A stretch of DNA of 64,000 nt, from the NCBI GenBank assembly GCA_965199675.1, contig CBDATI010000044.1, forward strand, positions 2,793 to 66,792. The letters run 5' to 3'. The notes under the pieces were generated by a model. That model ran no database searches. It worked only from the letters and a program-made list of their open reading frames with translations, and had not been told where the DNA came from. Source of the stretch: Vicinamibacterales bacterium (GTDB lineage Bacteria; Acidobacteriota; Vicinamibacteria; Vicinamibacterales; UBA8438). Position numbers and translations under genes: made by a program. Positions 6,808-42,072 of the stretch are shown here, in pieces (the stretch's first letter is position 1; each line of letters opens with the position of its first letter).

Positions 6808-8442
6808 ATGCAACGGCTTGCCACCGCCATCACTCTGCTCACCGCCGCCGCGGGCGCGGCCGCCCAGCCCGCGGACGACGCGACGGGCGCATCACCATCC
6901 TTCTCGCCCGTCACCTGGGAGCGCCTGCTGAACGCGGCCGACGAGCCCGAGAACTGGCTGATGTACTCGGGCACCCTCGACGCCCAGCGCTACAGCCGGC
7001 TCGACGAGGTCCACAACCGCAACGTTGGCGAGCTCGAACTCAAGTGGGCCTACCAGATCCCCCAGCTCGATCGGGCCGAGACGTCGCCGCTGGTGGTCGA
7101 CGGCGTGATGTTCATCACCGAGGCGCCGAGCAACGTGGTCGCCGTCGACGCCGCGACCGGCCGGCAGTACTGGCGCTATGACCACCCCCTGCCCGACGAC
7201 CTGCGTATCTGCTGCGGGCGGAACAACCGCGGCGTGGCGATTCTCGGCGACACCCTCTTCATGAGCACCCTCGACGCCCACCTCGTCGCCATCGACGCGC
7301 GCACCGGCAACCTCGTGTGGGACCGTGAGGTCGCCGACCACCGCTCGGGCTACAGCAAGACCGCCGCGCCGCTCGTCGTCAAGGGCGAGGTCGTCACCGG
7401 CATCGCCGGCGGCGAGTTCGGCATCCGCGGCTTCGTCGACGCCTACGACGCCGCGACCGGCGACCTCACGTGGCGGGCGTGGACGATCCCCGGCCCCGAC
7501 CATCCCGACAACCAGACCTGGGCCGGCGAGTCGTGGCGCACCGGGGGCTCGGCGAGCTGGATCACCGGCGCCTACGACCCCGACCTCGATCTCGTCTACT
7601 GGGGCACGGGCAACCCGGGGCCGGACTGGAACGGGGACGTGCGGCTCGGCGACAACCTCTACTCCGATTCGGTGCTGGCCATCGACCACGAGACCGGCGG
7701 GCTCGACTGGTACTTCCAGTTCACGCCGCACGACGTGCACGACTGGGACGCCATCCAGGTACCGATTCTCGCCGACCTGACGATGGACGGTGAGGAGCGC
7801 AAGGTGATGATGTGGGCGAACCGCAACGCCTTCTTCTACACCCTCGACCGCGTGACCGGCGAGTTCCTCCTCGGGACGCCCTACGCCGAGCAGACCTGGG
7901 CGGTCGGGCTCGATTCGAACGGGCGGCCGATCCGCGTGCCCGACACCGCCCCCACCCCCGAAGGCACTCTCGTCTCGCCGCCCGTCGTCGGCGGCACCAA
8001 CTGGTTCTCGCCCGCCTACAGCCCGCGCACCGAGCTCTTCTACGTGCAGGCCTACGACGGCGAGGACATCTACTACAAGCGCGACGAGGAGTACGTCGAG
8101 GGCGACCGCTACACCGGCGGCGGGTTCCAGCGGCCCCTGCCGGTCGACAACTACCACAGCGCCATCCGCGCCATCGACCCGCGCACCGGCGACATCCGGT
8201 GGGAGTACGCCGTCCAGCCGCGGTCGACGGCCGGCGTGCTGGCGACGGCGGGTGACCTCGTGTTCAGCGGCAGCGTCGACGGCTACTTCTACGCCCTGGA
8301 CGCCTCGACCGGGCGCGAGCTGTGGCACGTCGCGGTCGGGGCCATGGTGCACGCCGCCCCCATGACCTACGCCGTCGACGGGCAGCAGTACGTGACCATT
8401 GCGGCCGGCAACGTGGTGTTCACCTTCGGGCTGCCCCAGTAG
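6808..8442 (+). CDS. Exported PQQ-dependent alcohol dehydrogenase (methanol/ethanol family)
   Basis: Signal peptide from ATG 6808; vicinal CC in ICCGRNNRG, GGEFGIRG, YWGTGNPGP, PHDVHDWDA, repeated Trp docking motifs. Confidence 0.9.
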   Translation: MQRLATAITLLTAAAGAAAQPADDATGASPSFSPVTWERLLNAADEPENWLMYSGTLDAQRYSRLDEVHNRNVGELELKWAYQIPQLDRAETSPLVVDGVMFITEAPSNVVAVDAATGRQYWRYDHPLPDDLRICCGRNNRGVAILGDTLFMSTLDAHLVAIDARTGNLVWDREVADHRSGYSKTAAPLVVKGEVVTGIAGGEFGIRGFVDAYDAATGDLTWRAWTIPGPDHPDNQTWAGESWRTGGSASWITGAYDPDLDLVYWGTGNPGPDWNGDVRLGDNLYSDSVLAIDHETGGLDWYFQFTPHDVHDWDAIQVPILADLTMDGEERKVMMWANRNAFFYTLDRVTGEFLLGTPYAEQTWAVGLDSNGRPIRVPDTAPTPEGTLVSPPVVGGTNWFSPAYSPRTELFYVQAYDGEDIYYKRDEEYVEGDRYTGGGFQRPLPVDNYHSAIRAIDPRTGDIRWEYAVQPRSTAGVLATAGDLVFSGSVDGYFYALDASTGRELWHVAVGAMVHAAPMTYAVDGQQYVTIAAGNVVFTFGLPQ

Positions 8443-19686: not shown

Positions 19687-21657
19687 TCACGGCAGCGCGA
19701 AAGCAATCAGCTCGCCTTGGTGGGTCCCGCCGCCCACGGCCAGCACCAGATACTGCCGTCCGTTCAGCAGGTAGGTCATCGGCGAACCGGTCTGGGCGGC
19801 GGGCAGGTAGACCGCCCCCCGCTCCTCCCCCGTCGCCTTGTCGTAGGCGCGCAGCATGGCCCCGCGCACGCCGGACGGCGTGGTGAACGTCCCGCCCTCA
19901 CCGCTGATGACGAGAGTCTTCGTCGTCAGGGTGCCGATGCCGCCGGAGCTGCCGCCGGCGCCTCCGGTGCGGCCGGTGCGCGGAATGTCGAGGCCGCGCA
20001 GGGCGGGATGGTTGCGCACGAAGTCGGGGGTCTCGCCATGCGCGATCTGCCACACGATCTCCCCGGCGTTCAGATCGATGGCGGTGATGCGACCCCACGG
20101 CGGCTTCATCATCGGCAGGCCCCGCACGGTGGGCGGGCGCAGTCGGCCGCTGACGTAGTCCATGTCCGACCGGGCGGGATCGTTGACGAGGCCTATCGCC
20201 CGGTTGAGGGTGTGGGAGTACAGGTACAGCATGCCGGTCTCGGGATCGAACGAGCCGCCCGGCCAGTTGGCGCCGTTGGGCACGAACAGGGTCGCGAGCA
20301 GGCCGTCCTGCCCTCGCACGATGGGCGGCGTGAACACCGGCCCGGTGCGGTACCGCGACGCGATCTCGAGGGCCTCCGCGTGCAGCTCGGGGGTGAAGTC
20401 GATCAGCTCGTCGAGGGTGAACCCCTGCCGTTCGAACGGCAGCGGCTTCGTGGGGAACGGCTGGGTCGGCGCATACCACTCGCCCGGGACGTTCCCCGCC
20501 GGCACCGGCCGCTCCTCGATGGGCCAGACCGGCTCGCCGGTGACCCGGTCGAACACGTACACCCACCCCTGCTTGGTGGGCTGGGCCACCGCCGCAATCT
20601 CGCGTCCGTCGACGGTGATGTCGACGAGGATCGGCGGACACGGCACGTCGTAGTCCCAGATGGGGTGGTGCACGAACTGGAAGTGCCACAACCGCTCGCC
20701 GGTCTCGAGGTCGACGGCGACGAGGCTCTCCGCGAACAGGTTGTCGCCGGGCCGGTGGCCGCCGTAGTAGTCGCCGGTGGGGATCTCGATCGGGAGGTAG
20801 GCGATGCCGAGCGCCTCGTCGACGGTCAGGTTGGTCCAGATTCCGGTGTTCCCGGTGTAGACGGCCGAGTCGTTCAGCCACGTCTCGCGCCCGAACTGGC
20901 CGGGCCGGGGAATGGTGTGGAAGATCCACCGGCGCTCGCCGGTGCGGGCGTCGTAGCCGCGGATGTAGCCCTTGACGTTCTCACGGCTCGGCGGCGATCC
21001 GCCGGAGCGGTGGGAGGCCCCCACGATGACCACGTCGCGGGCGACGACGGGAGCGCTGTTCCACCCGATCTCGCCGGTCAGGGGATCGATGTACTGGTCG
21101 TTGTCACGCTTGAGGTCGACGATGCCGTCGACGCCGAAATCGGGCACGGGCCGCCCCGTCCGGGCGTCGAGTCCCACGAGCTGATAGCCGATGGTGACCA
21201 GGTAGATGCGCTCGTCGCCCGCGCCGTCGGTCCAGTACGCGACCCCGCGCCCCGACATGCGGCGGATGGCGTTGGTCCCCCGCTGCCCCTCGTCGAGCCG
21301 ATAGACCCACAGCAGCTCGCCGGTGGCCGCGTCCAGCGCCACGACGTTGCGGCGGCTGCCGGCGGTGGCGTAGAGCACACCGTCGACCATCAGGGGCGTG
21401 GCCTGGTAGTTGAAGTCGGGGAACGGCCCGAGGTTGGTGGTGCGGAACCGCCACTGCACCTCGAGGTCGTCGAAGTTGCCGCCGTCGATCTGGTCGAGCG
21501 GCGCGTACCGGGTGCTGCCGAGGTCGCCGCCGTAGGTCCGCCACTCTCCGTCGGCCGCCCCGTGCTGGGCGAAGCTCGTGGGCGCTCCCCCGAGCAGGAC
21601 CATCGCCGCCACCGCCGCAAGCGCCCCCGCGCCGCGCACATTCACCTGTCGTGACAT
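19687..21657 (-). CDS. Exported PQQ-dependent dehydrogenase, glucose-dehydrogenase-like
   Basis: WRTYGGDLGSTRYAPLDQI, QATPL, HHPIWDYDVP, KPPWGRITAIDL. Confidence 0.88.
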   Translation of the reverse strand: MSRQVNVRGAGALAAVAAMVLLGGAPTSFAQHGAADGEWRTYGGDLGSTRYAPLDQIDGGNFDDLEVQWRFRTTNLGPFPDFNYQATPLMVDGVLYATAGSRRNVVALDAATGELLWVYRLDEGQRGTNAIRRMSGRGVAYWTDGAGDERIYLVTIGYQLVGLDARTGRPVPDFGVDGIVDLKRDNDQYIDPLTGEIGWNSAPVVARDVVIVGASHRSGGSPPSRENVKGYIRGYDARTGERRWIFHTIPRPGQFGRETWLNDSAVYTGNTGIWTNLTVDEALGIAYLPIEIPTGDYYGGHRPGDNLFAESLVAVDLETGERLWHFQFVHHPIWDYDVPCPPILVDITVDGREIAAVAQPTKQGWVYVFDRVTGEPVWPIEERPVPAGNVPGEWYAPTQPFPTKPLPFERQGFTLDELIDFTPELHAEALEIASRYRTGPVFTPPIVRGQDGLLATLFVPNGANWPGGSFDPETGMLYLYSHTLNRAIGLVNDPARSDMDYVSGRLRPPTVRGLPMMKPPWGRITAIDLNAGEIVWQIAHGETPDFVRNHPALRGLDIPRTGRTGGAGGSSGGIGTLTTKTLVISGEGGTFTTPSGVRGAMLRAYDKATGEERGAVYLPAAQTGSPMTYLLNGRQYLVLAVGGGTHQGELIAFALP

Positions 21658-22746: not shown

Positions 22747-24171
22747 ATGCCTGCATCGAGCTGCCGTTGGTTCGCGGCCGGCCTGACCGCCGCCGCCATC
22801 GCCCTGACCGCCGCGCCGGCCGCGGCCCAGACCAGCAGCGAGGCGGACGCCGTCACCTACCACCGGGACATCGCGCCCATCTTCGAGCGGAGCTGCCAGC
22901 ACTGCCACCGCCCCGAGTCGGTGGCGCCGATGTCGCTGCTGACCTACGAGGACGTGCGGCCCTGGGCGCGGTCCATCAAGTACCGCACCGGGCGGGTCGG
23001 CAAGCCGGACGTGATGCCGCCGTGGTACATCGAGAAGGATGTCGGCATCCAGGACTACAAGGGCGACATCTCGTTGAGCACCGACGAGATCGCGCTCGTC
23101 GCGGCGTGGGTCGACAGCGGCGCCCCGCGCGGCGAGCCCGTCGACCGTCCCGCCGTGACCCGCGTCGTCGACGCGTCGGGCTGGCAGATCGGCGAGCCGG
23201 ACCTCATCGTTCGGTCCCCGGAGGTCGAGGTTCCGGCGACAGCCCCCGACTGGTGGGGACCGATGGGCGAAACCGAGACCGGCCTCACCGAGGACCGCTA
23301 CGTCTCGGCCATCGAGATGCGCGAGTTGAGCACCTACGAGGGGCCGCCCGAGCGCGACACCATCGGTGGGCTCTACGTCATCCACCACCTCGTCATGCTG
23401 CCGGTCGGCCCGGACGGCAGGCCGGTCGACGAGGCCGGCTTCTGGCCGGTCCACGAAGTGGGCCGCAACCCCGACGTCTTCCACCCCGACGCCGGCAAAC
23501 TGCTGAAGGCGGGCTCGAAGGTCCTCTTCCCCTCCGCCCACCTGCACTCGAACGGACGCCACACCCGCGCGCAGCTCGAGATCGGGTTCAAGTTCCACCC
23601 CGAGGGGTACGAGCCATCGCGGACGGTGCAGATCATCGGTCCCGCCACCGTCGAGCTCGACATCCGGCCGATGGAGGCCAACCAGAAGTTCGAGGCGTTC
23701 AGCACCCTGATGGAGCACACCAAGATGATGGTGTACGAGCCGCACATGCACGCGGCGGGGGTGCGGATGTGCCTCGACGCGATCTGGCAGAACAACGTCG
23801 AGACCCTGAGCTGCGCTGGCTACAACCACAACTGGGTGCGGGTGTACACCTTCGAGGACGACGCGGCGCCGCTGCTGCCGCGGGGCACCATCCTCCGCAT
23901 CAGGGGCTACTTCGACAACACCCCGACCAACCCCAACGTCTCCGATCCGCGGAACTGGTCGGGCCTCGGCCACCGCTCGATCGACAACATGATGATCAAC
24001 ATCGGCCAAGCGGTGTCGCTGACCGACCAGGAGTTCGCGGACGAGATGGCGGCGCGGCGCGACCGCCTCGGGCTCGCCCCTGGAGAGACGGTCATCGGGT
24101 GCCCGCTGTGCGGCTACCCCGATCCGTCCGAGCTGGTGCCGGCCGGGGCCGCCGACACCGAGGGCCAGTAG
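22747..24171 (+). CDS. Exported c-type cytochrome fused to a copper type II (PHM/DBH-like) monooxygenase (copy 1)
   Basis: Signal peptide; CQHCH and MPPW; VIHHLV, AHLH, PHMH, DNMM. Confidence 0.8.
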   Translation: MPASSCRWFAAGLTAAAIALTAAPAAAQTSSEADAVTYHRDIAPIFERSCQHCHRPESVAPMSLLTYEDVRPWARSIKYRTGRVGKPDVMPPWYIEKDVGIQDYKGDISLSTDEIALVAAWVDSGAPRGEPVDRPAVTRVVDASGWQIGEPDLIVRSPEVEVPATAPDWWGPMGETETGLTEDRYVSAIEMRELSTYEGPPERDTIGGLYVIHHLVMLPVGPDGRPVDEAGFWPVHEVGRNPDVFHPDAGKLLKAGSKVLFPSAHLHSNGRHTRAQLEIGFKFHPEGYEPSRTVQIIGPATVELDIRPMEANQKFEAFSTLMEHTKMMVYEPHMHAAGVRMCLDAIWQNNVETLSCAGYNHNWVRVYTFEDDAAPLLPRGTILRIRGYFDNTPTNPNVSDPRNWSGLGHRSIDNMMINIGQAVSLTDQEFADEMAARRDRLGLAPGETVIGCPLCGYPDPSELVPAGAADTEGQ

Positions 24172-24173
24172 CC

Positions 24174-25124
24174 ATGGCGAGCACGACGCAGACGCAGAAG
24201 CCGCGGGGGGCGGGAGCGGCCGTCGGCTCCGTCGCCCTGCTGGCCGCGACCATCGTCGCCACCCCGGTCACGGTTTCTGCGCAGAATCCGGCCGAGGCCG
24301 AGGACCGGTCGGGGCGCGAGCTCAGCATCTCGCCCGCCTACGAAGGCTGGGAGAGGAACGACGACGGTTCGTTCAACCTGGTCTTCGGCTACATGAATCG
24401 AAGCTGGGACCCGGCCGAGATCCCCATCGGCCTCGACAACCGGATCGAGCCGGGCAACCCGGACCGCGGCCAGCCGACGCGATTCCAGCCGCGGCGGAAC
24501 CGGCACGTCTTCCGCATCCACGTCCCGGCCGACTTCGGCGATCAGGAGCTGGTGTGGACGCTCGTCCGCCGCGGCGAGATCGAGCGCGCCTACGCGACCC
24601 TGCATCCCGACTACTTCCTCGACGACATCGCGATCATGAACAACAACGGCGCCGGCGGGCCGGCCGGCGGCGCCTACAACATCTTCGGCAACCGGCGGCC
24701 GGAGCTGACAGTCGACGACCTGTCGGTGCGCCGCACCACCGTCGGCGACCCCGTCGTCCTGCAGGCGCGCGCCACCGATGACGGCGTCCCCAGAACACGG
24801 AACATGCCCGCCCCGCGCATCGGCGCCACCCGCATCGGCGCCGGCACCCCGAACAGCGCGAGCGGCCTGCGCGTGGCCTGGATCGTCTACCGCGGGCCGG
24901 GCGCGGTCACCTTCGACCCGCCGCAGTTCAAGGTCTGGGAGGACTATCGAGCCGGCGCCGACTCGCCGTGGGCGCCGGGCTGGAAGACGCCGGAGCCGCC
25001 CGAGGACGGGACGTGGGTCGTCGAGGCGACCTTCCACCGGCCCGGCCGCTACGTGCTGCGCGCTCTCGCCCACGACGGCGGCCTCTCGACGCACCAGGAC
25101 GTGACCGTGGCGGTCGGCCCGTAG
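24174..25124 (+). CDS. Exported partner protein with C-terminal Ig/PKD-like domain (copy 1)
   Basis: PAYEGWERNDDGSFNLVFGYMNR, DRGQPTRFQPRR, ATFHRPGRYVLRALAHDG; starts 2 nt after the upstream stop. Confidence 0.8.
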   Translation: MASTTQTQKPRGAGAAVGSVALLAATIVATPVTVSAQNPAEAEDRSGRELSISPAYEGWERNDDGSFNLVFGYMNRSWDPAEIPIGLDNRIEPGNPDRGQPTRFQPRRNRHVFRIHVPADFGDQELVWTLVRRGEIERAYATLHPDYFLDDIAIMNNNGAGGPAGGAYNIFGNRRPELTVDDLSVRRTTVGDPVVLQARATDDGVPRTRNMPAPRIGATRIGAGTPNSASGLRVAWIVYRGPGAVTFDPPQFKVWEDYRAGADSPWAPGWKTPEPPEDGTWVVEATFHRPGRYVLRALAHDGGLSTHQDVTVAVGP

Positions 25125-25455
25125 GGGCCGGGCAGCTTCTGTCAAACCGTCGCTCGAAAGCGCGGGAAATCCGACGGTGAACTGCAGCCGAAACATATTG
25201 GAGGCGTCACCGACCGCAGGAGCCCGTGTGGACAAGCGAGCGCGGAGTCGGCATCGAGGCCGTGAGCCAGCAGAAGCGCAGGGCGAAGCACTCTGACACG
25301 AGGGAGTACCGCAGCACCATCCGCACCGCCGATTCCCACCACCGCTACTGGTCAACATGAACAGACATGAACATGACCAGCAGACGGCTTCATTTCGATC
25401 GCCGATCCCTGACGAACCACAAACCCAGGCGCCGGCTGCCGGCACAACCCGCCCA

Positions 25456-26133
25456 TCAGAAGAACAGCAGCACGTCCTCTTCCACCTCGCCGATGACGAC
25501 GCTCGTATCGGTCACGTCGGTCACTCGGAAGCGGTAGAGGCCGCGCGGAGCGGGGCCGCCGAGGCGGCGGCCGTCGGCGGCCGCGAACGCGCTGTTGTGG
25601 CAGGGGCAGAGGTACACCGGGCTGTCCACCGGTCCGGTCTCGGCAATCACGTCGGGATGCAGATCGGCGGGATCGCCGACGAAGTCGACCTCGCACTGCT
25701 CGTGGGGACAGACCGCGCAGACGGCGCGGAAGCGATCGGGGGCGTCGTCGGCGTCCGAGATGCGCGTCACGAAACCGGTCACGCGGATCGGCCGATCGGG
25801 GTTCGCCGCCGTCGGCAGCGACACCGCGCGGGCCTGGAACCGCCGCGCGCGACCGGGGGCGGCGAGCACGCCACGCGGCACGAGCACCGGCCGGGGCAGC
25901 GGGTGGTAGCGCAGGAAACGCCGGCCCTGGGCGCGCAGGCGGCGGCCGACGCTGGCGAGGACGAGGGCGACGCTGCCGAGGAACGTCCGGCGGGCCAAGC
26001 GCTTGTCAGGCGCCTTCTTCGCGGGGTGCTGCGCAGGCGGTGCGGGGTGCTGCGCAGGCGGTTCACTCTCCCCGGCCCAGCGCGTGTGTTTGCCGGCCAA
26101 GCGAGCGTTCCCGCGACGTGCTCCCGAGATCAT
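25456..26133 (-). CDS. Rieske [2Fe-2S] protein with Tat-like signal
   Basis: RRTFLG; CPHEQC and CPCHNS boxes; ATGA overlap with the upstream diheme gene. Confidence 0.85.
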   Translation of the reverse strand: MISGARRGNARLAGKHTRWAGESEPPAQHPAPPAQHPAKKAPDKRLARRTFLGSVALVLASVGRRLRAQGRRFLRYHPLPRPVLVPRGVLAAPGRARRFQARAVSLPTAANPDRPIRVTGFVTRISDADDAPDRFRAVCAVCPHEQCEVDFVGDPADLHPDVIAETGPVDSPVYLCPCHNSAFAAADGRRLGGPAPRGLYRFRVTDVTDTSVVIGEVEEDVLLFF

Positions 26134-26936
26134 GGGGCGACCTGCCCCTGCACCCATGCGGCCAGCGCCTGCCACTCGTCGGCGTCCTGCGACTCCCAGT
26201 GCTTGCCGCCCGCGTGCCAGCGGCTGCCCCCGGCCTCCTCGACCAGCGGGTTCACCAGCAGCACGCTCGCCATCGGCGACCCCGGCACAACCAGCCGCTG
26301 CACCCGCTCGAAGTTGCGGAACGACTGCTCCTCGCCCCACGTCTCCCGGCCCGGCGGCAGCGGCTCCAGAAACGCGTTGCCGCCCCCCGTCGAGTGGCAG
26401 ACGACGCAGCGGGCGTTGCCGGGGCGGCGGTTCAGGAAGACCGGCTCCACGTGGTCGCGGTAGAAGCCGAAGTCGAGGGCGATCGAGGTCGAGTTGACCC
26501 AGCGCGCCAGCGCCTGCCACTCGTCGGCGTCCTGCGACTCCCAGTGCTTGCCGCCCGCGTGCCAGCGGCTGCCCCCGGCCTCCTCGGCTAGCGGGTTCAC
26601 CAGCAGCACGCTCGCCATCGGCGCCCCCGGCACAACCAGCCGCTGCACCCGCTCGAAGTTGCGGAACGACTGCTCCTCGTCCCACGTCTCCCGGCCCGGC
26701 GGCAGCGGCTCCAGAAACGCGTTGCCGCCCCCCGTCGAGTGGCAGACGACGCAGCGGGCATTGCCGGGGCGGCGATTCAGAAAGACCGGCTCCACCGTCT
26801 CGAGGTAGAGGTCGAAGTCGAGGCCGAGCAGCGTCTCGCCGGCGGCGGGCGGCTGCGCGGCAACCGGCGCCGGGGCCAGAGCGACGACAGCGGCAAGCAT
26901 GATGACGCCTGCCATGAAAGACGTCCGTGCGAACAT
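26130..26936 (-). CDS. Exported diheme c-type cytochrome made of two near-identical domains
   Basis: Signal peptide; ARCVVCHS occurs twice, 115 aa apart. Confidence 0.8.
   Translation of the reverse strand: MFARTSFMAGVIMLAAVVALAPAPVAAQPPAAGETLLGLDFDLYLETVEPVFLNRRPGNARCVVCHSTGGGNAFLEPLPPGRETWDEEQSFRNFERVQRLVVPGAPMASVLLVNPLAEEAGGSRWHAGGKHWESQDADEWQALARWVNSTSIALDFGFYRDHVEPVFLNRRPGNARCVVCHSTGGGNAFLEPLPPGRETWGEEQSFRNFERVQRLVVPGSPMASVLLVNPLVEEAGGSRWHAGGKHWESQDADEWQALAAWVQGQVAP
26161..26825. repeat. Intragenic tandem duplication, period 345 bp
   Basis: 26161-26450 versus 26506-26795 differ at about 7 positions by eye; similarity extends to about 26480 and 26825. Confidence 0.9.
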
Positions 26937-27160
26937 GACGCGAACTCTCCTTCCGAACACCACAGACCGGCGCGGGAGGGCGACGGCCGGAGCCTTGGAC
27001 CCGACCGGCGCCGGAAGCGACGGATCGAACCTCGAACGACCCGCCCCGGCGACGGGCCTCCAGCCAGACCCGGCCCTGTCGAGTCGCTTGCAACTACCCC
27101 GCCGTCAACGCCGGGCAGCCGGGCGGTGACGTTCCGCTTCGGCACCGTGGCCGAGGCTCG

Positions 27161-28243
27161 CTATTGTCCCACCGGCAGCCCCGGCAGCCGGGCGGTGATG
27201 TTCCGCTTCGGCACCTGTCCGACCTGGATCACCTCGACCTCCTCGCGCGCCGCGACGTCGACCACCGAGACGGTGTTCGAGTGCGCGTTGGCCACGTAGA
27301 GGTACTTGCTGTCGGGGGTGAACGTCAGCCAGTCGGGCACCACGCCCACCTTGACGCCGCCGAGGAACTCGAGGTCGGGCAGCGCGTAGGCGTAGACACT
27401 GCCGTTGATCTTGCTGGTCGACCAGATGGTCGCGCCGTCCGGCGTGATCTTGATGCCGTGGGCCGGCGCCCCCTGGATGCCGTAGGTGTTGCGCTCGGCC
27501 ACGGGGATGTCCGGCTGGACGATGCGGCGCACCTCGCGGCGCTTCTCCCAGTCGACCACCGCGAACCCGTGCAGGTTGGAGATCTGCACGTACATGTTCT
27601 TCGTCGACCCGTCGGGGTTGGTGTCGAAGGTGAACGGCCGCACGCCGCCCTCGAAGTGGAACGCGAAGACGGGCCGTTCGAGCTCGGTGTCGATGACCGT
27701 CGCGCTCGATCCGCCGATGGAGCCGGCGACGACGTACCGGCTGTCGGGGGTCATGAACGTGTTGTGCACGCCGCGCAGGATGCGGATGAAGTCGACATGC
27801 TCCTCGGTCACGGTGTCGATGATGTCGACGCCGCCCCCCACGCCCCGGATGGCCACGTAGAGCCGCTCGCCGTTCTCGTGGATGGCGACGTTGTTCGGCC
27901 GCCCGCTCAGGGGAATCGACTTGCGGACCTCGAGGGTCTTGGTGTCGACGATGTCGAGGGCGTGGGTCGACTCGTTGCTCAGATAGATGCGGCCGCCGTC
28001 GGGCGCCGCCGCCACGCCGTGGATGACTTCGACCCCGGTGATCTCGGCGACGATGTCGTTCGTCGCCGGATCGATGACGTGCACGTTGTCGCCGGCGGCG
28101 TTGGTCTGGACGATGTAGACGTCGTCGTCGTTCGCGACCGCCGCGGCGGGCGGCAGCAGGACGGCGGCGACGGCGAGAGCGGTCAGAACGCGCAGCGGGC
28201 GGACCGGGCGACGGCCACGCGCGCGCGGAGCGGCGGATGTCAT
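27161..28243 (-). CDS. Exported YVTN/YncE-like beta-propeller protein
   Basis: Signal peptide; repeated PDG...YV.N...VSVVD blades. Confidence 0.85.
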   Translation of the reverse strand: MTSAAPRARGRRPVRPLRVLTALAVAAVLLPPAAAVANDDDVYIVQTNAAGDNVHVIDPATNDIVAEITGVEVIHGVAAAPDGGRIYLSNESTHALDIVDTKTLEVRKSIPLSGRPNNVAIHENGERLYVAIRGVGGGVDIIDTVTEEHVDFIRILRGVHNTFMTPDSRYVVAGSIGGSSATVIDTELERPVFAFHFEGGVRPFTFDTNPDGSTKNMYVQISNLHGFAVVDWEKRREVRRIVQPDIPVAERNTYGIQGAPAHGIKITPDGATIWSTSKINGSVYAYALPDLEFLGGVKVGVVPDWLTFTPDSKYLYVANAHSNTVSVVDVAAREEVEVIQVGQVPKRNITARLPGLPVGQ

Positions 28244-28484
28244 GGGCGAGCCTCCTCGCAGGGACTCTAGCGCGCCGCCGCGTGAACCGTCAACCGCGGC
28301 AGCACCCGCCGGCCCCGCCCCTCGCGGGCGCGGCCGACGGTCCGGACGCGCCCGCCCCGAGCCCCTGGAGCAGCGCCCGTCGGTCCGGTCGGCGCCGAGC
28401 GCGCTCGAATGAAACGAGCGCTCGTGAGTGGTTCGACTGCGCCCGTTCGCCCGGCTGCATGCCCTTGCAGGAGTCGGCGTCGCT

Positions 28485-30593
28485 CTATGGCGCCGACGCC
28501 TGCCCCTGTCCCACCCGCCAGAGCAGGAAGCTGACGGTGTCGACCATCTCGTCGATCTGCTGGCTCACGGGCTGGCCGCCGGAGTGGCCGGCCTGGGTGT
28601 GGTAGCGGAGCAGGATGGGGTCGTCCGAGCCGTTCCTGGCCTGCATCAGGGCGGTCATCTTGCGTGCGTGCAGCGGCGCCACGCGCGTGTCGCCGTCGCC
28701 CGAAAGGTACAGTGTCGCCGGGTAGTCGCCGCCGTCGACGACGTTGTGGTACGGCGAGTACGCGTGAATGTAGGCGAACTGCTCGGGATCGTCGCTCGAC
28801 CCGTACTCGGGCACCCAGAAGCTGGCGACGAGGAACTGATGGTAGCGGACCATGTCGAGCAGCGGATAGGTGCAGACCACCGCCCCGAACAGGTCGGGCC
28901 GCTGGTTCGACACCGCCCCCACGAGGAGGCCGCCGTTGCTGCCGCCCCGTATCGCGAGGTGCTCGGGGCTGGTGTAGCCCTCCGCGACCAGATGCTCGGC
29001 CGCGGCGATGAAGTCGTCGAAGACGTTCTGCTTGCTCTCGAGCATGCCGGCCCGGTGCCACGCCTCGCCGAACTCCCCGCCCCCGCGCATGTTCGCCTGG
29101 ACGAAGACCCCCCCCGACTCGAGCCACGTCGTCGCGAGGGCCGAGAACCGCGGTGTCATGCTGTTGTTGAAGCCGCCGTAACCGGTCAGCAGGGTCGGGT
29201 TGCTTCCGTCGAGGGCGACGTCGGAGGGATGGACGATGAACATCGGGACTTCGGTCCCGTCCTTCGAGGCGAACCAGCGCTGGGTGACGGTATAGGCGGC
29301 GGAGTCGACGGGCAGTTCGGGTGCGCTCCACACGGACTGCTCGCCGGTCGCGAGGTCGTAGCGGTAGATGGTGCTCGGCACGTGGAACGTCTGGAACGTG
29401 AAGAAGGCCTCGTCGCTCGCCCAGCGGCCCGCGCCGCCGCCGACCGAGCCGAGGGTGTCGAACGCGATGTCGCGGACGTGGGTCCCGTCGAGCTCGTGGA
29501 CGGCGACCCGCGGCTGCACGTCCCGCAGGTACGAGACAGCCAGCTTCCCGCCGAGGGCGGCGACCCCTTCCACGACCACGCCGCTGCGCTCGGGGACCAC
29601 CTCGCGCCACCGTTCGAACCCGGGGTCCGCGGGGTCGGCAAGCACCACCCGCTTGTTCGGCGCGTCGAGATTGGTGACGATGACCAGTTCGTTCCCCGCG
29701 AACGAGGCCCACGACTCGGAGACTCCGTCGGCGACGGCGGTCACGAACGGCGAGTCGCGGCGGAGGTCCTTGACGTGGATCTCGGTTGGCCCCGACGAGC
29801 CCTCGATGACGTGCACGACCATCCAGCGTCCGTCGTCGGACACCACCGTGACGGGGATCTGGTGGCGCTCGTACCCCTCGCCGAAGAGCTGTACGTCGTC
29901 GGCCAACGGGGAGCCGAACGCGTGGAACATCACCCGCGGCGTCACGTCGCCGTAGCGCTCGTAATAGAGCCCGCGGCCATCCGCGGACAGGGTCACGCCG
30001 CCGTAGCGGGCGGCCGGCAACACGTCGTCGAGGTCCACGCCGGTGTCGACGTCGCGGACGCGGATGGAGACTTCGTCGACGCCCCCCTCGCGCACGGCGT
30101 AGGCCACCTGCGTCCCGTCGTCTGAGATGTCCCGCAGGGCCACGCTCGTGGAGTGGTCCGGGCTCATCGGGTGCGGGTCGATCAGCACGCGGTCCTCGCC
30201 GTCGAGCCCCTCGCGCACGTAGACCACCGACAGGTCCTGGTCGGCACGCCGCTTGCTGTAGAAGTAGCGCCCCGCGCGCTCGTTCGGCAGGCCGACCACG
30301 TCGCGCTGGAGCACCGATGCGGCCTGCGCCCGCAGATCCCCGCGGCCGGGCAGGGCGCCGAGCACCGCATCCGTATAGGCGTTCTGCGCGTCGATCCAGG
30401 CGCGCGTCGCCGGCGCCTCCTGGTCCTCCAGCCAGCGGTAGGGGTCGGGCACGTCCACGCCGTGCAGCGTGTCGACGACCTCCCGGACCTCGGTGGGCGG
30501 TGGGGGCGGCACGTCGATTCCCTGCCCCTCGGCGGCGCAGGCCGCCGTCAGCGCCGCCCCCGCAATACCCGCGATTCGTCGCGATTCGGTCAT
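28485..30593 (-). CDS. Prolyl oligopeptidase (S9A), probable lipoprotein
   Basis: DPYRWLED, GYGGF, GGSNGG (Ser), DTRV (Asp), AGH (His); LTAAC lipobox-like. Confidence 0.92.
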   Translation of the reverse strand: MTESRRIAGIAGAALTAACAAEGQGIDVPPPPPTEVREVVDTLHGVDVPDPYRWLEDQEAPATRAWIDAQNAYTDAVLGALPGRGDLRAQAASVLQRDVVGLPNERAGRYFYSKRRADQDLSVVYVREGLDGEDRVLIDPHPMSPDHSTSVALRDISDDGTQVAYAVREGGVDEVSIRVRDVDTGVDLDDVLPAARYGGVTLSADGRGLYYERYGDVTPRVMFHAFGSPLADDVQLFGEGYERHQIPVTVVSDDGRWMVVHVIEGSSGPTEIHVKDLRRDSPFVTAVADGVSESWASFAGNELVIVTNLDAPNKRVVLADPADPGFERWREVVPERSGVVVEGVAALGGKLAVSYLRDVQPRVAVHELDGTHVRDIAFDTLGSVGGGAGRWASDEAFFTFQTFHVPSTIYRYDLATGEQSVWSAPELPVDSAAYTVTQRWFASKDGTEVPMFIVHPSDVALDGSNPTLLTGYGGFNNSMTPRFSALATTWLESGGVFVQANMRGGGEFGEAWHRAGMLESKQNVFDDFIAAAEHLVAEGYTSPEHLAIRGGSNGGLLVGAVSNQRPDLFGAVVCTYPLLDMVRYHQFLVASFWVPEYGSSDDPEQFAYIHAYSPYHNVVDGGDYPATLYLSGDGDTRVAPLHARKMTALMQARNGSDDPILLRYHTQAGHSGGQPVSQQIDEMVDTVSFLLWRVGQGQASAP

Positions 30594-30665
30594 GGTCTCC
30601 TCCTCGACCCGAGGCATCGAGCCTCGCGCACGCGCCTTCCCCGATCGACCGGTCGACGCCACCGG

Positions 30666-31130
30666 CTACGCGTCCCCGACGGGCAACGCCGCCAGATCCA
30701 CCAGATCGAGCCCTCGAAACCGTCGGAAATCACGCAGGTTGCCCGTCACCAGCCGCGTCAGGCCATGCTCCTGCATCGTCGCAACGATGTTGGCGTCGTG
30801 AAGCTGCCTGCCCGAGCACGCCACGGTCCGCGCGATGTCCAGCAGCCGAACCGTCACGTTTCGGTTCTCGTCGACGACCGTGCTGCGTCCCGCGATCGCC
30901 TCGGCGTTACGCACCGCCTCCCGCGGCGGAAGACCCAGCCCGTTCGCAGCCACCGGCCGCGTGCAGACCGCGAGGAACTCGCGCACGACCTGACCACTCA
31001 CGTACAGGGCAACCCCCCGATTGGGCAGTACGTTCAGCACGTGGATCGCCTGCGCATGCAGACCGCGCGCGCGGTCCACGGCGCTCAGCAGCACGTTGGT
31101 GTCGCAGAACAGGCGATCACCCGCCGTCAT
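30666..31130 (-). CDS. vapC: PIN-domain toxin (VapC-like)
   Basis: LFCDTNVLL, QVVREF, LHDANIVATM, LVTGNLRDF. Confidence 0.88.
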   Translation of the reverse strand: MTAGDRLFCDTNVLLSAVDRARGLHAQAIHVLNVLPNRGVALYVSGQVVREFLAVCTRPVAANGLGLPPREAVRNAEAIAGRSTVVDENRNVTVRLLDIARTVACSGRQLHDANIVATMQEHGLTRLVTGNLRDFRRFRGLDLVDLAALPVGDA

Positions 31131-31347
31131 CGCCGTAGATGTCCTCGCGCGTCCACAGGCGTTCGCCTCCGATGTCGACGTGATGGAGCCGAATGGGCGG
31201 GTATCCTCCCTCCGGAGGCGCCGTCCGCGCCGCTTCCACCAGGATCTCCCGCACTTCGCCCTGCACCGATCGATGATGGGCCCGGGCTCTTCGCTTCAGC
31301 GCACTCATCGTCTGTTCGGACAGTTCGCGCACATGGATGCCAGGCAT
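31117..31347 (-). CDS. Ribbon-helix-helix antitoxin (FitA/VapB-like)
   Basis: MPGIHVRELSEQTMSALKRRARAHHRSVQGEVREIL; overlaps the PIN gene start. Confidence 0.82.
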   Translation of the reverse strand: MPGIHVRELSEQTMSALKRRARAHHRSVQGEVREILVEAARTAPPEGGYPPIRLHHVDIGGERLWTREDIYGDDGG

Positions 31348-31369
31348 GGTGTCATTATGACACCATGCC
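31343..31369. promoter_or_regulatory. Perfect 12-bp inverted repeat over the antitoxin -10 box and start codon (probable autorepression operator)
   Basis: GGCATGGTGTCA-TTA-TGACACCATGCC; on the minus strand CATAAT lies 6 nt before the ATG. Confidence 0.7.
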
Positions 31370-31550
31370 GAGTCGGGGGAACACGAAGCTCGGAAGGACC
31401 GGTCGAGACGAGTTCCAGTGCGCCCCGGGCGCGTGGACGCGGCCGCGCTCAGTCCGCCCGCGGCCGACGGTGGTACTTCAGCGCCCCGCCGCGCCCCGTC
31501 CGCCCATGGCCCCGCCGCCATCGTCGGCCCCGCCGCCATCGTCGGCGTCG

Positions 31551-32540
31551 TCAGTCTCCCGCCAGCCAGAACATGCACCCCGGACCCGAGTCGGCGCCGG
31601 TCGCCACCTCCGACACCACCTCCAGGGTCTCGAGGTCGATCACCGCCACGCGGTCGTCGCCCCGCAGCGCCGCGTACGCCACGGCGCCGTCGGGCCGCAC
31701 CAGCACCGCGTTGGGGGCGAGGTCGAGCCGTTCCATCTCGGTCCGTGACGCGGCGTCCATGACCACGACGCTCGTGGCCGAGTCCGAGATCAGCACCCGC
31801 GCGCCGTCGGGCGTGAACGCCAGCCGGTTCGGGTCCTGCAGACCCAGGTCGAGCCGCTCGGTGACCGTCTTGGCCGCCACGTCGACGATGGACACGCCGC
31901 CGTCGTTGCGGGTGGCCACCCACAGCTCCGCGCCGTCCGGCGAGACGTCGAGCCCCTCCGGGTACTCGCCGCCGGCGGGGATCGTGGTCACCCGCCAGTC
32001 GGGCGGACCGGCCGCCGCGCCCTCGACCACGCTCAAGGTGTCGGACTCGCGGTTCGCGGTGAAGATGGTGTCGCGGTCCCGACTCAGGACCATCATGTGG
32101 GCGCCGTCCTGACCGAGGCCGAGCAGCCAGTCGACCTCGTCGGCCTCGGGATCGTAGCGGCCGATGGCCTTGTAGCCCTCCACCGTGAAGTACAGCCGTC
32201 CGCCGGCGAAGCGGACATCGTGGGGCACACTGCCGCGCCCGATGTCGAGCCGGCGCACCTCCGTCAGCGTCTCCAGGTCGATCACCGAGATGCCGTCGCT
32301 CGGACTGGCCACGAACGCGAGCCTCCCGTCCGGCGTCGCGGTCACCTCGTGGGGGCCCGACACCGTGTCCACCTGGCCGAGCACCGTCCCCGCCGCCGGG
32401 TCCACGACGGCCAGCGCGCTGGCGTCACGCAGCAGCACCAGCAACCGCGCGTCCCCGGCGGACTGAGCCGCCGCGCCGCCAACCCCCGCCAGGAACGCGG
32501 CAACGCCGCACATCACCACCGCTTGTCTCGCTGCACGCAC
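31551..32540 (-). CDS. Exported YncE-like beta-propeller protein
   Basis: Signal peptide; repeated TPDG/SPDG blades. Confidence 0.82.
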   Translation of the reverse strand: MRAARQAVVMCGVAAFLAGVGGAAAQSAGDARLLVLLRDASALAVVDPAAGTVLGQVDTVSGPHEVTATPDGRLAFVASPSDGISVIDLETLTEVRRLDIGRGSVPHDVRFAGGRLYFTVEGYKAIGRYDPEADEVDWLLGLGQDGAHMMVLSRDRDTIFTANRESDTLSVVEGAAAGPPDWRVTTIPAGGEYPEGLDVSPDGAELWVATRNDGGVSIVDVAAKTVTERLDLGLQDPNRLAFTPDGARVLISDSATSVVVMDAASRTEMERLDLAPNAVLVRPDGAVAYAALRGDDRVAVIDLETLEVVSEVATGADSGPGCMFWLAGD

Positions 32541-40002: not shown

Positions 40003-42072
40003 TCAGTGACCGTCGCCGGCCGGCAACCGCAGGGCCGCGAGCGACGCCGGGAAGACGCCGCCCTGCGCGATCTGCACGACGATGTACTGGTCGCCGTCGT
40101 GCTCGTAGGTCATCATGCCGTACTGGCCCGGCGCGGGCAGGTCGACGGTGCCGACGATTTCGCCCGTCGTCTTGTTGCGCGCATCGAGCACGGCCGGCCC
40201 GTTCATGCCCCGGGTGGTGAGCAGGAGGCTGCCGGTGACCATGGACACGGCCCGGCTGCCGCCGCCGACCCCGGTGAGGTCGATGCCCTGCAGGGCGGGG
40301 TGCCGCCGCATCCGCTCGGACGCCTCGCCCACCGGCTGCCACCACAGGTGCTCGCCGGTGTTCATGTCGATGGCGGTGATGCGGTTGTAGGGAGGCTTGT
40401 GCATCGGCAGCCCCTGGGGACCGCCCCAGCCGACGCCGCCGCCCTGCACCCAGTCGGACACCGTGGTGCCCGTCGTCCAGCAGTCGCCCTCGGACGACGT
40501 GCACGCGTGGGTGTCGCCGTCGGTGTTCGTGCCCGGCTGCACGAGCCGGCCCGAGCACTGCGGCCCCGACGGCTGGTAGAGGATGCCGGTGGTCGGGTCG
40601 AGGGCGGCCGGATTGGTGATGTTGAGCCCGCCGGAGCAGCCGATCCAGCCCTGGACCGGCTCGTTGTGGCCTTCCGGCAGGGGCGGCATGTAGGGTCCGC
40701 CAATCCGGAAGTTGCTCATGATCTCGAGCGCCTCGGCGCGCAGCTCGGGGGTGAAGTCGATGACGTTCTCCTCGGGCAGGCCGAGGGCCTCGAGGGGCGC
40801 GGGCCGGGTGGGGATGGGCTGGGTCGGCGAGAGCTGCTCGCCGGGCACCACCGAAGCCGGCACCTCGACCTCCTCGATCGGCCACACCGGCTCGCCGGTC
40901 TCGCGGTTGAACGCGAAGGTCAGGCCCTGCTTGGTGGTCTGGATGGCCATCGGCACGTCCTGGCCGTCGACGTTGACGTCCACGAGGATGGGCACGTTGG
41001 GCAGGTCGTAGTTCCAGATCGGGTGATGCACGGTCTGGAAGTGCCAAACCCGGTCACCAGTCTCGGCGTCGAGGGCGACGATGCTCGTCCCGAACAGGTT
41101 GTCCCCCGGCCTGAACCCGCCGTAGTAGTCGATGGTCGGCGCGTTCGTCGGAATGTAGACGATGCCCCGCTCGAGGTCAGCGGCGAGCGGCGCCCACGAC
41201 GACACGTCGCCGGTCCACCGCCATGCGTCGTTCTCCCAGGTGTCGAACCCGAACTCGCTCTCGGTCTGCGGAATGATGTTGAACTTCCACTTGAGCTGAC
41301 CGCTGCGGAGGTCGTAGCCGAGAATGTCGCCCGGCACGTTCTCGATGCGGCTCTGGCTGTACCCCTGCTCGTGCGAGTTGCCGACGACGATGGTGTCGTT
41401 GACCACGATGGGGGGCGACGAGTTGGTGATGTAGCCCAGGGTCGGGTCGAGCCCGCTGTAGGGGTCGTAGGGGTGGCCGAGGCCCGCCAGCAGATCGACG
41501 ACCCCCGTCTCCGGGAACCCGGGGACGTCCACCGGAGACCCGAACCCCTCGATGTGGTCGCCGGTCTTGGCGTCGAGCGCATGCAGGAAGAACGCCGGGG
41601 TCACGATGAAGATGACGCCCCGCCCGTCGACCTCGGCGTAGGCCACGCCCTTGCCGTAGGCGGCCCGCATCGACTGCTCCCACCGTTCGGTGTTCGGCTC
41701 GCGGTAGGTCCACAGCGTCTCGCCGGTGGCCGGGTCCATGGCCACCACCGTGCGCCGGTAGCCGGCCACGGTGTAGAGGACGCCGTCGATGTAGCTTGGC
41801 GTCGACCGCGACGCGTAGTTGGTGTGCGGGCTGTAGTTGTCGCCCCGCCACACCCACGCCACCTCGAGGTCCTCGAAGTTCCCGGCGTCGACCTGATCGA
41901 GCGGCGAGAACCGGGTACCCCAGGCGTCGCCGCTCTGGTACCACCATTCCCCGTGGGGCGTGCCCCGCTCCCGCTCCTGGGCGGCCGCGCCGGTGACGGC
42001 CAGGGCCACCGCCAGCAGGGTGATCCACGAGAGGCGTCCGGCGCCCCCGCGACGTCTTGCCTGTGCTCTCAT
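40003..42072 (-). CDS. Exported PQQ-binding dehydrogenase-like protein, glucose-dehydrogenase-like
   Basis: GDAWGTRFSPLDQV, STPSY, HHPIWNYDLP, KPPYNRITAIDM. Confidence 0.85.
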   Translation of the reverse strand: MRAQARRRGGAGRLSWITLLAVALAVTGAAAQERERGTPHGEWWYQSGDAWGTRFSPLDQVDAGNFEDLEVAWVWRGDNYSPHTNYASRSTPSYIDGVLYTVAGYRRTVVAMDPATGETLWTYREPNTERWEQSMRAAYGKGVAYAEVDGRGVIFIVTPAFFLHALDAKTGDHIEGFGSPVDVPGFPETGVVDLLAGLGHPYDPYSGLDPTLGYITNSSPPIVVNDTIVVGNSHEQGYSQSRIENVPGDILGYDLRSGQLKWKFNIIPQTESEFGFDTWENDAWRWTGDVSSWAPLAADLERGIVYIPTNAPTIDYYGGFRPGDNLFGTSIVALDAETGDRVWHFQTVHHPIWNYDLPNVPILVDVNVDGQDVPMAIQTTKQGLTFAFNRETGEPVWPIEEVEVPASVVPGEQLSPTQPIPTRPAPLEALGLPEENVIDFTPELRAEALEIMSNFRIGGPYMPPLPEGHNEPVQGWIGCSGGLNITNPAALDPTTGILYQPSGPQCSGRLVQPGTNTDGDTHACTSSEGDCWTTGTTVSDWVQGGGVGWGGPQGLPMHKPPYNRITAIDMNTGEHLWWQPVGEASERMRRHPALQGIDLTGVGGGSRAVSMVTGSLLLTTRGMNGPAVLDARNKTTGEIVGTVDLPAPGQYGMMTYEHDGDQYIVVQIAQGGVFPASLAALRLPAGDGH

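Follow-up and report, generated by a model that had tools for sequence, protein, structure and literature searches.

A conserved periplasmic redox module of a beta-propeller, a twin-haem cytochrome and a Rieske protein in Vicinamibacterales

To our knowledge, bc-type Rieske proteins are known almost only from Rieske/cytochrome b complexes and from arsenite oxidase. What, then, does a Rieske protein of this type do when it is encoded beside a beta-propeller and a cytochrome? The question is raised by a 64,000-nucleotide stretch of contig CBDATI010000044.1 (hereafter the window, about 70% G+C), which comes from a metagenome-assembled genome of Vicinamibacterales (Acidobacteriota; assembly GCA_965199675.1). 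Three genes follow one another on its minus strand. The first (27161-28243) encodes an exported seven-bladed YVTN beta-propeller of 360 residues, described with Pfam, NCBIfam and AlphaFold2. The second (26130-26963) encodes an exported protein of 277 residues with two tandem haem-c units, and the third (25456-26133) a [2Fe-2S] protein of 225 residues that is of bc type and carries a twin-arginine translocation (Tat) signal. A first-pass annotation had described three co-oriented exported genes making up a soluble periplasmic electron-transfer module, possibly in the service of the adjacent heme-copper enzyme or of the pyrroloquinoline quinone (PQQ) dehydrogenases. The minus-strand open reading frames (ORFs) are confirmed, and export signals, read by eye from the sequence, are present in all three proteins. 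The description as a periplasmic electron-transfer module also stands, and no membrane or quinone-binding partner accompanies the genes. The trio is a genuine redox module of the periplasm, conserved but not yet characterised, and it is best placed among the haem- or Rieske-wired oxidoreductases.

The three genes form a conserved unit. The trio was surveyed in 40 related genomes, including 21 sister genomes of the same genus, and the Rieske gene was found in 7 of the 21 same-genus genomes and, elsewhere in the order, in four further genera. When one genome per species was scanned, 334 stretches encoded a Rieske relative, and the best of them (about 60) constitute the trio family. These stretches come nearly all from Vicinamibacterales/Acidobacteriota, and an even sample of the phylum contained the Rieske family in 7 of 401 genomes. 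The trio is syntenic in about 50 Acidobacteriota loci, in which the Rieske protein is 48-93% identical. In almost all of these loci, with one exception (L053), the cytochrome gene immediately precedes the Rieske gene on the same strand. The propeller gene adjoins them in four arrangements: in 31 loci it comes first on the same strand, in about 14 it lies downstream and is convergent, in 3 it is downstream on the same strand, and in 1 it is divergent. Recurrence in about 50 loci puts the grouping of the three genes far beyond chance. Neighbourhood conservation had been proposed as a check on the module, and the objection that the genes might not be syntenic elsewhere thus falls away.

The unit is also autonomous from the genes around it. 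Gene tables of three distant genomes contain the same three genes among entirely different neighbours. Clustering of all ORFs from 64 loci yielded only lineage-specific blocks and no fourth recurrent gene, and a xanthine-dehydrogenase-type Mo protein lies next to the trio in one lineage only. In the window, the adjoining genes (22747-25124) encode a haem-fused PHM-like copper monooxygenase (22747-24171) and its partner. Such a monooxygenase requires an electron supply, and the trio could be its dedicated electron donor. The two gene sets converge with 331 bp between them, the block is retained in the 7 trio-bearing sister genomes, and remote homologs of the monooxygenase pair lie 3-4 kb from the trio in two loci (L072 and L074). 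However, the source genome contains about 25 paralogs of the monooxygenase and about 15 copies of the partner gene, and each genome of the genus gives 18-30 monooxygenase matches. Of the 21 sister genomes, 18 have an ortholog of at least 89% identity, and 11 of these 18 lack the trio. In genome G014 the trio has been lost down to a Rieske remnant, and the monooxygenase is retained. Outside the genus the neighbours differ; of about 50 loci, only 2 or 3 have the monooxygenase pair in the vicinity of the trio, as many as chance alone would give. Since the paralogs are many and the ortholog persists without the trio, the adjacency is a positional accident at the genus level. A dedicated donor role is very unlikely, and the earlier suggestion that the trio serves the adjacent heme-copper enzyme is not supported.

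The Rieske protein scores 26.9 bits against PF00355 (cut-off 20.3), and only its 52-residue Rieske core matches. The cluster boxes CPHEQC (C142, H144, C147) and CPCHNS (C176, C178, H179) supply the cluster ligands C142, H144, C176 and H179 and the disulfide pair C147/C178, and they are invariant in 23 homologs. Both boxes, with both extra cysteines, are in the sequence as the first-pass annotation had it, and so is the RRTFLG motif. The spacer between the boxes is long (28 residues), and the C-terminal EVEEDVLLFF is nearly invariant among homologs. Orthologs retain the twin-arginine motif (RRTFLG here), followed by a short hydrophobic stretch and then A-Q-G. The hydrophobic stretch, at about 13 residues, is below membrane-anchor length, and cleavage to a soluble protein is probable. 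The solved structures closest to it (9rk4_A, 9rk3_A, the b6f Rieske protein and AioB) are remote relatives.

The N-terminal end of the Rieske ORF is less certain. Residues 1-45 are unconserved, and homologs span only the last 75-85% of the protein. An in-frame TTG at 25998 would give MARRTFLG, as in the called orthologs, and it may be the real start rather than the ATG that overlaps the cytochrome gene. The reported overlap of cytochrome stop and Rieske start is therefore correct as to the letters, ATGA (ATG at 26133-26131, TGA at 26132-26130), and uncertain as to the start actually used. The unconserved region that precedes the twin-arginine motif contains a perfect 21-nt tandem duplication on the minus strand (26021..26062), which encodes PPAQHPA twice, a hint that the region may be an untranslated leader.

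The relation of this protein to the respiratory Rieske proteins can be addressed within the source genome. The sole cytochrome b match in the genome is at C57:100353-100775, beside a canonical Rieske protein (CTHLGC/CPCHGS). The genome has four Rieske domains, and only that of the trio is on the window contig, so no oxygenase alpha subunit is nearby. The absence of a cytochrome b and of an oxygenase alpha subunit from the neighbourhood, as originally noted, is thereby borne out. The protein is also not a Rieske oxygenase component, as it has no catalytic alpha domain, no further Rieske domain on the contig, and boxes of bc type. Its bc-type cluster boxes with disulfide cysteines, and the fact that its best named matches are the bc1 and b6f Rieske subunits, could be explained by a spare or exchangeable subunit of a respiratory Rieske/cytochrome b complex, the other two genes being unrelated. 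However, the scores against the bc families are low: 26.3 bits against a cut-off of 97.4 for TIGR01416, 21.7 against 154 for NF010001, and 18.6 against 275 for NF050121. The protein is 30% identical over 80 residues to the genome's own bc Rieske protein, the one encoded beside cytochrome b. The check for a grouping with the bc-complex subunit thus turned out negative. The hydrophobic stretch is too short for a membrane anchor, the insert between the boxes is long, the C-terminal tail is family-specific, and the gene is in strict synteny with the cytochrome and propeller genes. No cytochrome b was seen in the gene tables of the three distant trio genomes, and none is recurrent in the roughly 50 loci. 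A role as a spare subunit is extremely unlikely.

The cytochrome begins MFARTSFMAGVIMLAAVVALAPAPVAAQ, an export signal, and its true start is likely the ATG at 26936, behind a Shine-Dalgarno-like run, GGAAGGAGAG. The haem motifs are CVVCH at C71-H75 and at C186-H190. Throughout the family, each haem unit has a CxxCH motif and an H-x-G-G motif (here H135 and H250). Because no Met is conserved in the cytochrome alignment while H-x-G-G is universal, the histidine of H-x-G-G is the likely sixth haem ligand, which would make the ligation bis-His. The protein falls outside the described families. No Pfam or NCBIfam family reaches its cut-off, and the class I cytochrome c models (PF13442, PF00034) give 22.7 bits for the whole protein against a cut-off of 27, and 13-15 bits for single units. 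The PDB holds no sequence or profile match, and the structure model (predicted local distance difference test, pLDDT, 74.8) gave no fold match, with a best E-value of 5.9. A possible resemblance of the haem unit to the planctomycete-type cytochrome domain PSCyt1 (PF07635) gained no backing from Pfam, where no match to it was listed even at E<=10. The cytochrome profile nevertheless matches 1072 cluster representatives (clustered at 50% identity) at E<=0.001 in a search of 1.84 billion representatives.

The two haem repeat units on the minus strand (26152-26451 and 26497-26796) have 96% nucleotide identity over 300 nt, with a spacing of 345 nt. Units within one cytochrome are 75-93% identical, compared with 60-73% between distant orthologs, and positional orthology of the units is still visible within the genus. 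This pattern indicates concerted evolution, in which the units would be homogenised repeatedly. An origin of the dihaem protein by recent duplication was rejected, as most orthologs already have two units and the units are homogenised within each protein across the family. The copy number of the unit is very plastic. Single-unit cytochromes occur in several independent genomes, one protein of 399 residues (P0364) has three units, and another of 850 residues (P0482) has several repeats.

What the first-pass annotation missed is that conservation centres on the propeller and not on the two carriers. Mean column identity is 69% for the propeller (37 orthologs) versus 57% for the cytochrome and 57% for the Rieske protein. 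Since it is the most conserved of the three and propeller-cytochrome pairs without a Rieske protein exist, the propeller is the common denominator. Its export signal is a hydrophobic stretch ending in AVA/NDDD. In Pfam it matches YNCE, Lactonase and Cytochrom_D1, the last (PF02239) being a partial match of about 80 residues. The AlphaFold2 model, built with 37 orthologs, has 7 blades and 28 strands at a mean pLDDT of 89.9. Its top Foldseek matches are 1l0q (an archaeal S-layer YVTN domain), the hydrazine synthase beta subunit 5c2v_B, NirF and NirN. Nine residues are fixed across the variant forms of the propeller: H75, E91, N117, H160, N161, R202, H262, W305 and R347. The conserved hub ring is composed of three His, one Glu, two Arg, Asn and Trp. 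By our reading of the topology of the model, the fixed residues would all lie on one face, where the inner strands begin and in a loop, and would ring the mouth of the central channel. This mouth is the usual cofactor or substrate site in propeller enzymes. A further set (H225, K278, D304, H321 and K346) is invariant solely in the propellers of Rieske-bearing trios. Lactonase-type NosZ (NF052460, clade III) was considered for the propeller and rejected at 54.1 bits against 700; the fusions and the paralog described below score 40-74 bits.

Judged from the relatives of its genes, the trio is best read as one variant, with a Rieske protein, of a so far undescribed family in which YVTN propellers are wired by haem. 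Relatives of the cytochrome include proteins of one, two and three units as well as at least 8 fusions to a homologous propeller, with the haem at either end. A haem unit precedes the propeller in P0419, P0452, P0464 and P0496, and follows it in P0408 (58% identical to the trio propeller) and P0449. Two haem units precede the propeller in P0366. The four fusion genes that were checked stand alone, with no Rieske gene and no dehydrogenase beside them. Such fusions argue for direct contact between haem and propeller. The source genome itself has a second module (C8:301495-302975), in which a one-unit cytochrome is followed by a propeller 52% identical to that of the trio, with no Rieske gene. 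A Rieske-less propeller of this type is present in all 21 sister genomes. A third form, a propeller followed by a dihaem cytochrome without a Rieske gene, is present in 11 sister genomes, none of which has an intact trio. Examples of this form are L114 (6766-8786) and L115, in G001 and G014, and its distribution within the genus is complementary to that of the trio, which may reflect either clade structure or functional replacement. In the propeller tree, the trio propellers form one clade (support 100/99) that is sister to a propeller-haem fusion.

A separate clade of the tree contains the propellers of a paralogous pair, here called type 2, in which a propeller gene is followed by a Rieske gene. 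The type 2 Rieske protein is 43% identical to that of the trio and the propeller 25-31% identical, and the Rieske protein has a similar C-terminal end, E-I-E-D-V-A-L-Y. The two genes are separated by 1-2 nt or overlap, a close coupling that links Rieske protein and propeller in this paralogous form. Often the next genes encode a class-I dihaem cytochrome c and a PQQ dehydrogenase, the dehydrogenase start overlapping the cytochrome stop. In other type 2 loci a PQQ dehydrogenase is upstream or divergent (L090 is among the PQQ-linked loci), and cupin, MFS, IclR and TonB-type barrel genes are also found in type 2 loci.

The type 2 loci bear directly on the proposal that the trio serves the PQQ dehydrogenases. 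The 5.3-Mb source genome has 99 PF01011 matches; some of the genes are split, so the matches represent roughly 80 genes. Periplasmic quinoprotein dehydrogenases are extremely expanded in this genome. In the window, PF01011 matches lie at about 6955-7872, 19750-21543 and 40081-41946. The trio could be a pure electron shuttle that takes electrons from PQQ dehydrogenases through the Rieske protein and the cytochrome to the respiratory chain, with the propeller only a scaffold or adaptor. Cofactor-free scaffolds of this kind exist in the heavy chain of methylamine dehydrogenase and in the beta subunit of hydrazine synthase. The type 2 pair speaks for a shuttle, since it shares an operon with a PQQ dehydrogenase and a class-I dihaem cytochrome c, the genes overlapping or abutting. 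Among NCBIfam models, the propeller scores highest (96 bits) against TIGR03866, 'PQQ-dependent catabolism-associated beta-propeller', and from established potentials that of a bc-type Rieske cluster would be expected to fall between those of PQQ and c-type cytochromes. However, of about 50 trio loci outside the genus, only 3 have a PQQ dehydrogenase within 10 kb. Given about 80 such genes in 5.3 Mb, this adjacency is at or below background, and a physical link of the trio to the dehydrogenases was rejected on these grounds. The trio is present in only 7 of the 21 sister genomes, and haem-propeller fusions occur without an adjoining dehydrogenase. Were the propeller no more than a scaffold, one would not expect it to exceed both partners in conservation, or its polar hub ring to persist in every variant. 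We consider a pure shuttle unlikely. Of the original proposal, the link of the trio itself to PQQ dehydrogenases finds no backing in gene position, and what stands is the indirect connection through the paralogous propeller-Rieske pair in PQQ operons.

These observations suggest that the three genes encode a propeller-centred periplasmic oxidoreductase, one self-contained redox complex, an interpretation in which we place middling confidence. The catalytic part would be the seven-bladed propeller, with the reactive site at the conserved hub ring. As a guess, the hub would hold a redox-active metal through three His and a Glu, and the Arg residues of the hub would hold an anionic substrate. The tandem c-haems, probably bis-His, and the Tat-exported bc-type Rieske protein with its disulfide would act as the electron wires. 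Electrons would most likely flow from the propeller site to the low-potential haems and on to the higher-potential Rieske cluster. The Rieske protein would be the exit to a soluble acceptor or a terminal oxidase, as in arsenite oxidase. The opposite direction, with reductive catalysis, is possible, and oxidation of a substrate is favoured.

Several points weigh against a catalytic, self-contained complex of this kind. The His ring is missing in one subgroup of the fusions (P0445, P0495), and the closest solved relatives of the propeller, the S-layer YVTN domain and hydrazine synthase beta, are cofactor-free. Histidines occur at the same blade positions in an unrelated second propeller of the window (31551-32540), so a His ring by itself counts for little. 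Alternatively, the acidic C-terminal tail of the Rieske protein could dock at the hub. The propeller is exported via Sec, and any cofactor would therefore have to be inserted in the periplasm. The propeller gene is absent within 10 kb of the other two genes in three loci (L037, L042 and L043), and in one of these genomes an intact copy, 89% identical, lies 1.09 Mb away. Finally, all of the family loci found come from metagenome-assembled genomes.

The conserved hub also permits another function, the handling of a metal. The propeller would bind a metal ion or a chelate at its His/Glu hub, in the manner of the periplasmic propellers PedA2/LutB (from a lanthanide import operon), YncE or the zinc chaperone AztD. 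What is bound, perhaps a ferric chelate or Cu(I), would then be reduced or oxidised by the haems and the Rieske protein. The propeller is distantly similar to the models of TIGR03866/PedA2, YncE and AztD, and PedA2 is a YVTN propeller in an operon needed for lanthanide-dependent growth (PMC6839425). Genes for TonB-type outer-membrane proteins adjoin several of the variants. However, the scores are far under the cut-offs (96 against 287 bits for TIGR03866, 20 against 400 for AztD), and no transporter, copper or iron gene is recurrent beside the trio. The adjacency of TonB-type barrel genes means little, and such genes are very numerous in Acidobacteria. We consider metal handling distinctly unlikely.

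If the propeller is the catalyst of a self-contained complex, a bolder proposal follows, which we put forward tentatively. The propeller family may be a new class of periplasmic metalloenzyme. Three His and one Glu at the hub of a compact seven-bladed propeller, with two Arg beside them, would hold a redox-active metal, and the propeller would be fed by a haem-c domain of a fold unseen in solved structures and, in two lineages, by a dedicated Rieske protein. If this is true, the trio would represent the third known use of a bc-type Rieske protein, and candidates for its substrate would be small inorganic anions and metal species. A conserved third Rieske partnership, with a propeller, would widen the known picture. 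The haem domain, with its 1072 representatives, no Pfam model and no structural relative, and the conserved hub together define a sizeable periplasmic redox family. The family is concentrated in Vicinamibacterales, bacteria that are abundant in soil, groundwater and sponges and have unusually rich sets of periplasmic oxidative enzymes. Identification of the substrate could reveal an overlooked redox reaction in these habitats. The variants of the module, with or without a Rieske protein, with one, two or three haem units, and fused or split, are natural experiments for that purpose.

The locus has further local features. A sigma-70-like promoter match, TTGACG-18-TAGAGT (28264..28293, minus strand), lies 20 nt upstream of the propeller start codon. 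It is the sole such match in 25200-28500, where shuffled sequences gave an expectation of 0.0, and it is a consensus match only. A 36-nt direct repeat on the minus strand (27111-27146 and 27180-27215, copies 94% identical) duplicates the codons of the last propeller strand (VPKRNxTARLPG) directly past the stop codon, and is probably the scar of a local duplication. Decay of the trio is visible in some sister genomes. G014 (L084) retains only Rieske residues 164-217, beside the monooxygenase partner gene, and G011 (L035) has a one-unit cytochrome and a propeller without its first 120 residues. The second propeller of the window (31551-32540, minus strand, 329 residues) is also an exported YVTN protein and has inner-strand histidines in three blades (PHEV, PHDV and AHMM). 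It has no cytochrome or Rieske neighbour and is kept near the trio within the genus only. Between it and a prolyl oligopeptidase gene (28485-30662) lies an ORF of 154 residues (30666-31130, minus strand), which by eye reads as a PIN-domain (VapC-like) protein and possibly has a small upstream partner or overlapping frame (31117-31923). It had no tblastn match in the related loci searched.

A literature search for the combination of propeller, cytochrome and Rieske genes returned nothing relevant. The trio resembles arsenite oxidase, cytochrome cd1/NirN and hydrazine synthase in its working, but it is a member of none of these systems. Every family-level comparison with a curated cut-off failed, and the defining partners (cytochrome b, AioA, an oxygenase domain, an ABC transporter) are absent. 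With the bc1 and b6f Rieske proteins it shares the cluster boxes, the disulfide cysteines and Tat export. In contrast to them, the trio Rieske protein has no cytochrome b partner and no long membrane anchor, and it has the 28-residue spacer and an acidic and aromatic C-terminal tail. PedA2/LutB (TIGR03866) is the best-scoring named family for every propeller variant, at 65-120 bits. PedA2 is an exported YVTN propeller of unknown function that is tied to PQQ-dehydrogenase loci (PMC6839425). The trio propeller, however, scores 96 bits against the cut-off of 287.3, and no ABC transporter genes lie beside the trio. We know of no case in which PedA2 is paired with a Rieske protein or a dedicated cytochrome.

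Hydrazine synthase also combines a seven-bladed YVTN propeller and a dihaem c subunit in one complex, and its beta subunit (5c2v_B) is the second-best match of the trio propeller in both fold and sequence. It differs in that NF052340 gives 93 bits against 560, the trio has no alpha subunit, the host is not an anammox bacterium, and the dihaem subunit is unrelated. Membership of the propeller in the PedA2 and hydrazine synthase beta families was rejected alike, the scores being far under the cut-offs. NirS and NirN have their catalytic centre in the His- and Arg-lined hub of a propeller that is fed by a c-haem domain. Fused relatives of the trio have the same arrangement of haem domain and propeller, and NirF and NirN are among the top fold matches of the trio propeller. 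In contrast to cd1/NirN with its eight blades, the trio propeller has seven in the model, and its haem domain is of a different fold and without a family model. No haem d1 genes were seen nearby, the genome-wide complement of haem d1 synthesis genes not having been searched. In arsenite oxidase (AioAB), the partner is a molybdopterin/3Fe-4S subunit and not a YVTN propeller, and no aioA-like gene is among the conserved neighbours of the trio. AioB (8r3a_B) is among the few solved relatives of the trio Rieske protein, with a marginal similarity (E 0.002-0.3). Like the trio, AioAB has a Tat-exported bc-type Rieske protein outside a Rieske/cytochrome b complex. AioB is the small partner of a periplasmic catalytic subunit and passes electrons to c-type cytochromes, and it is to this role that the role of the trio Rieske protein may be likened.

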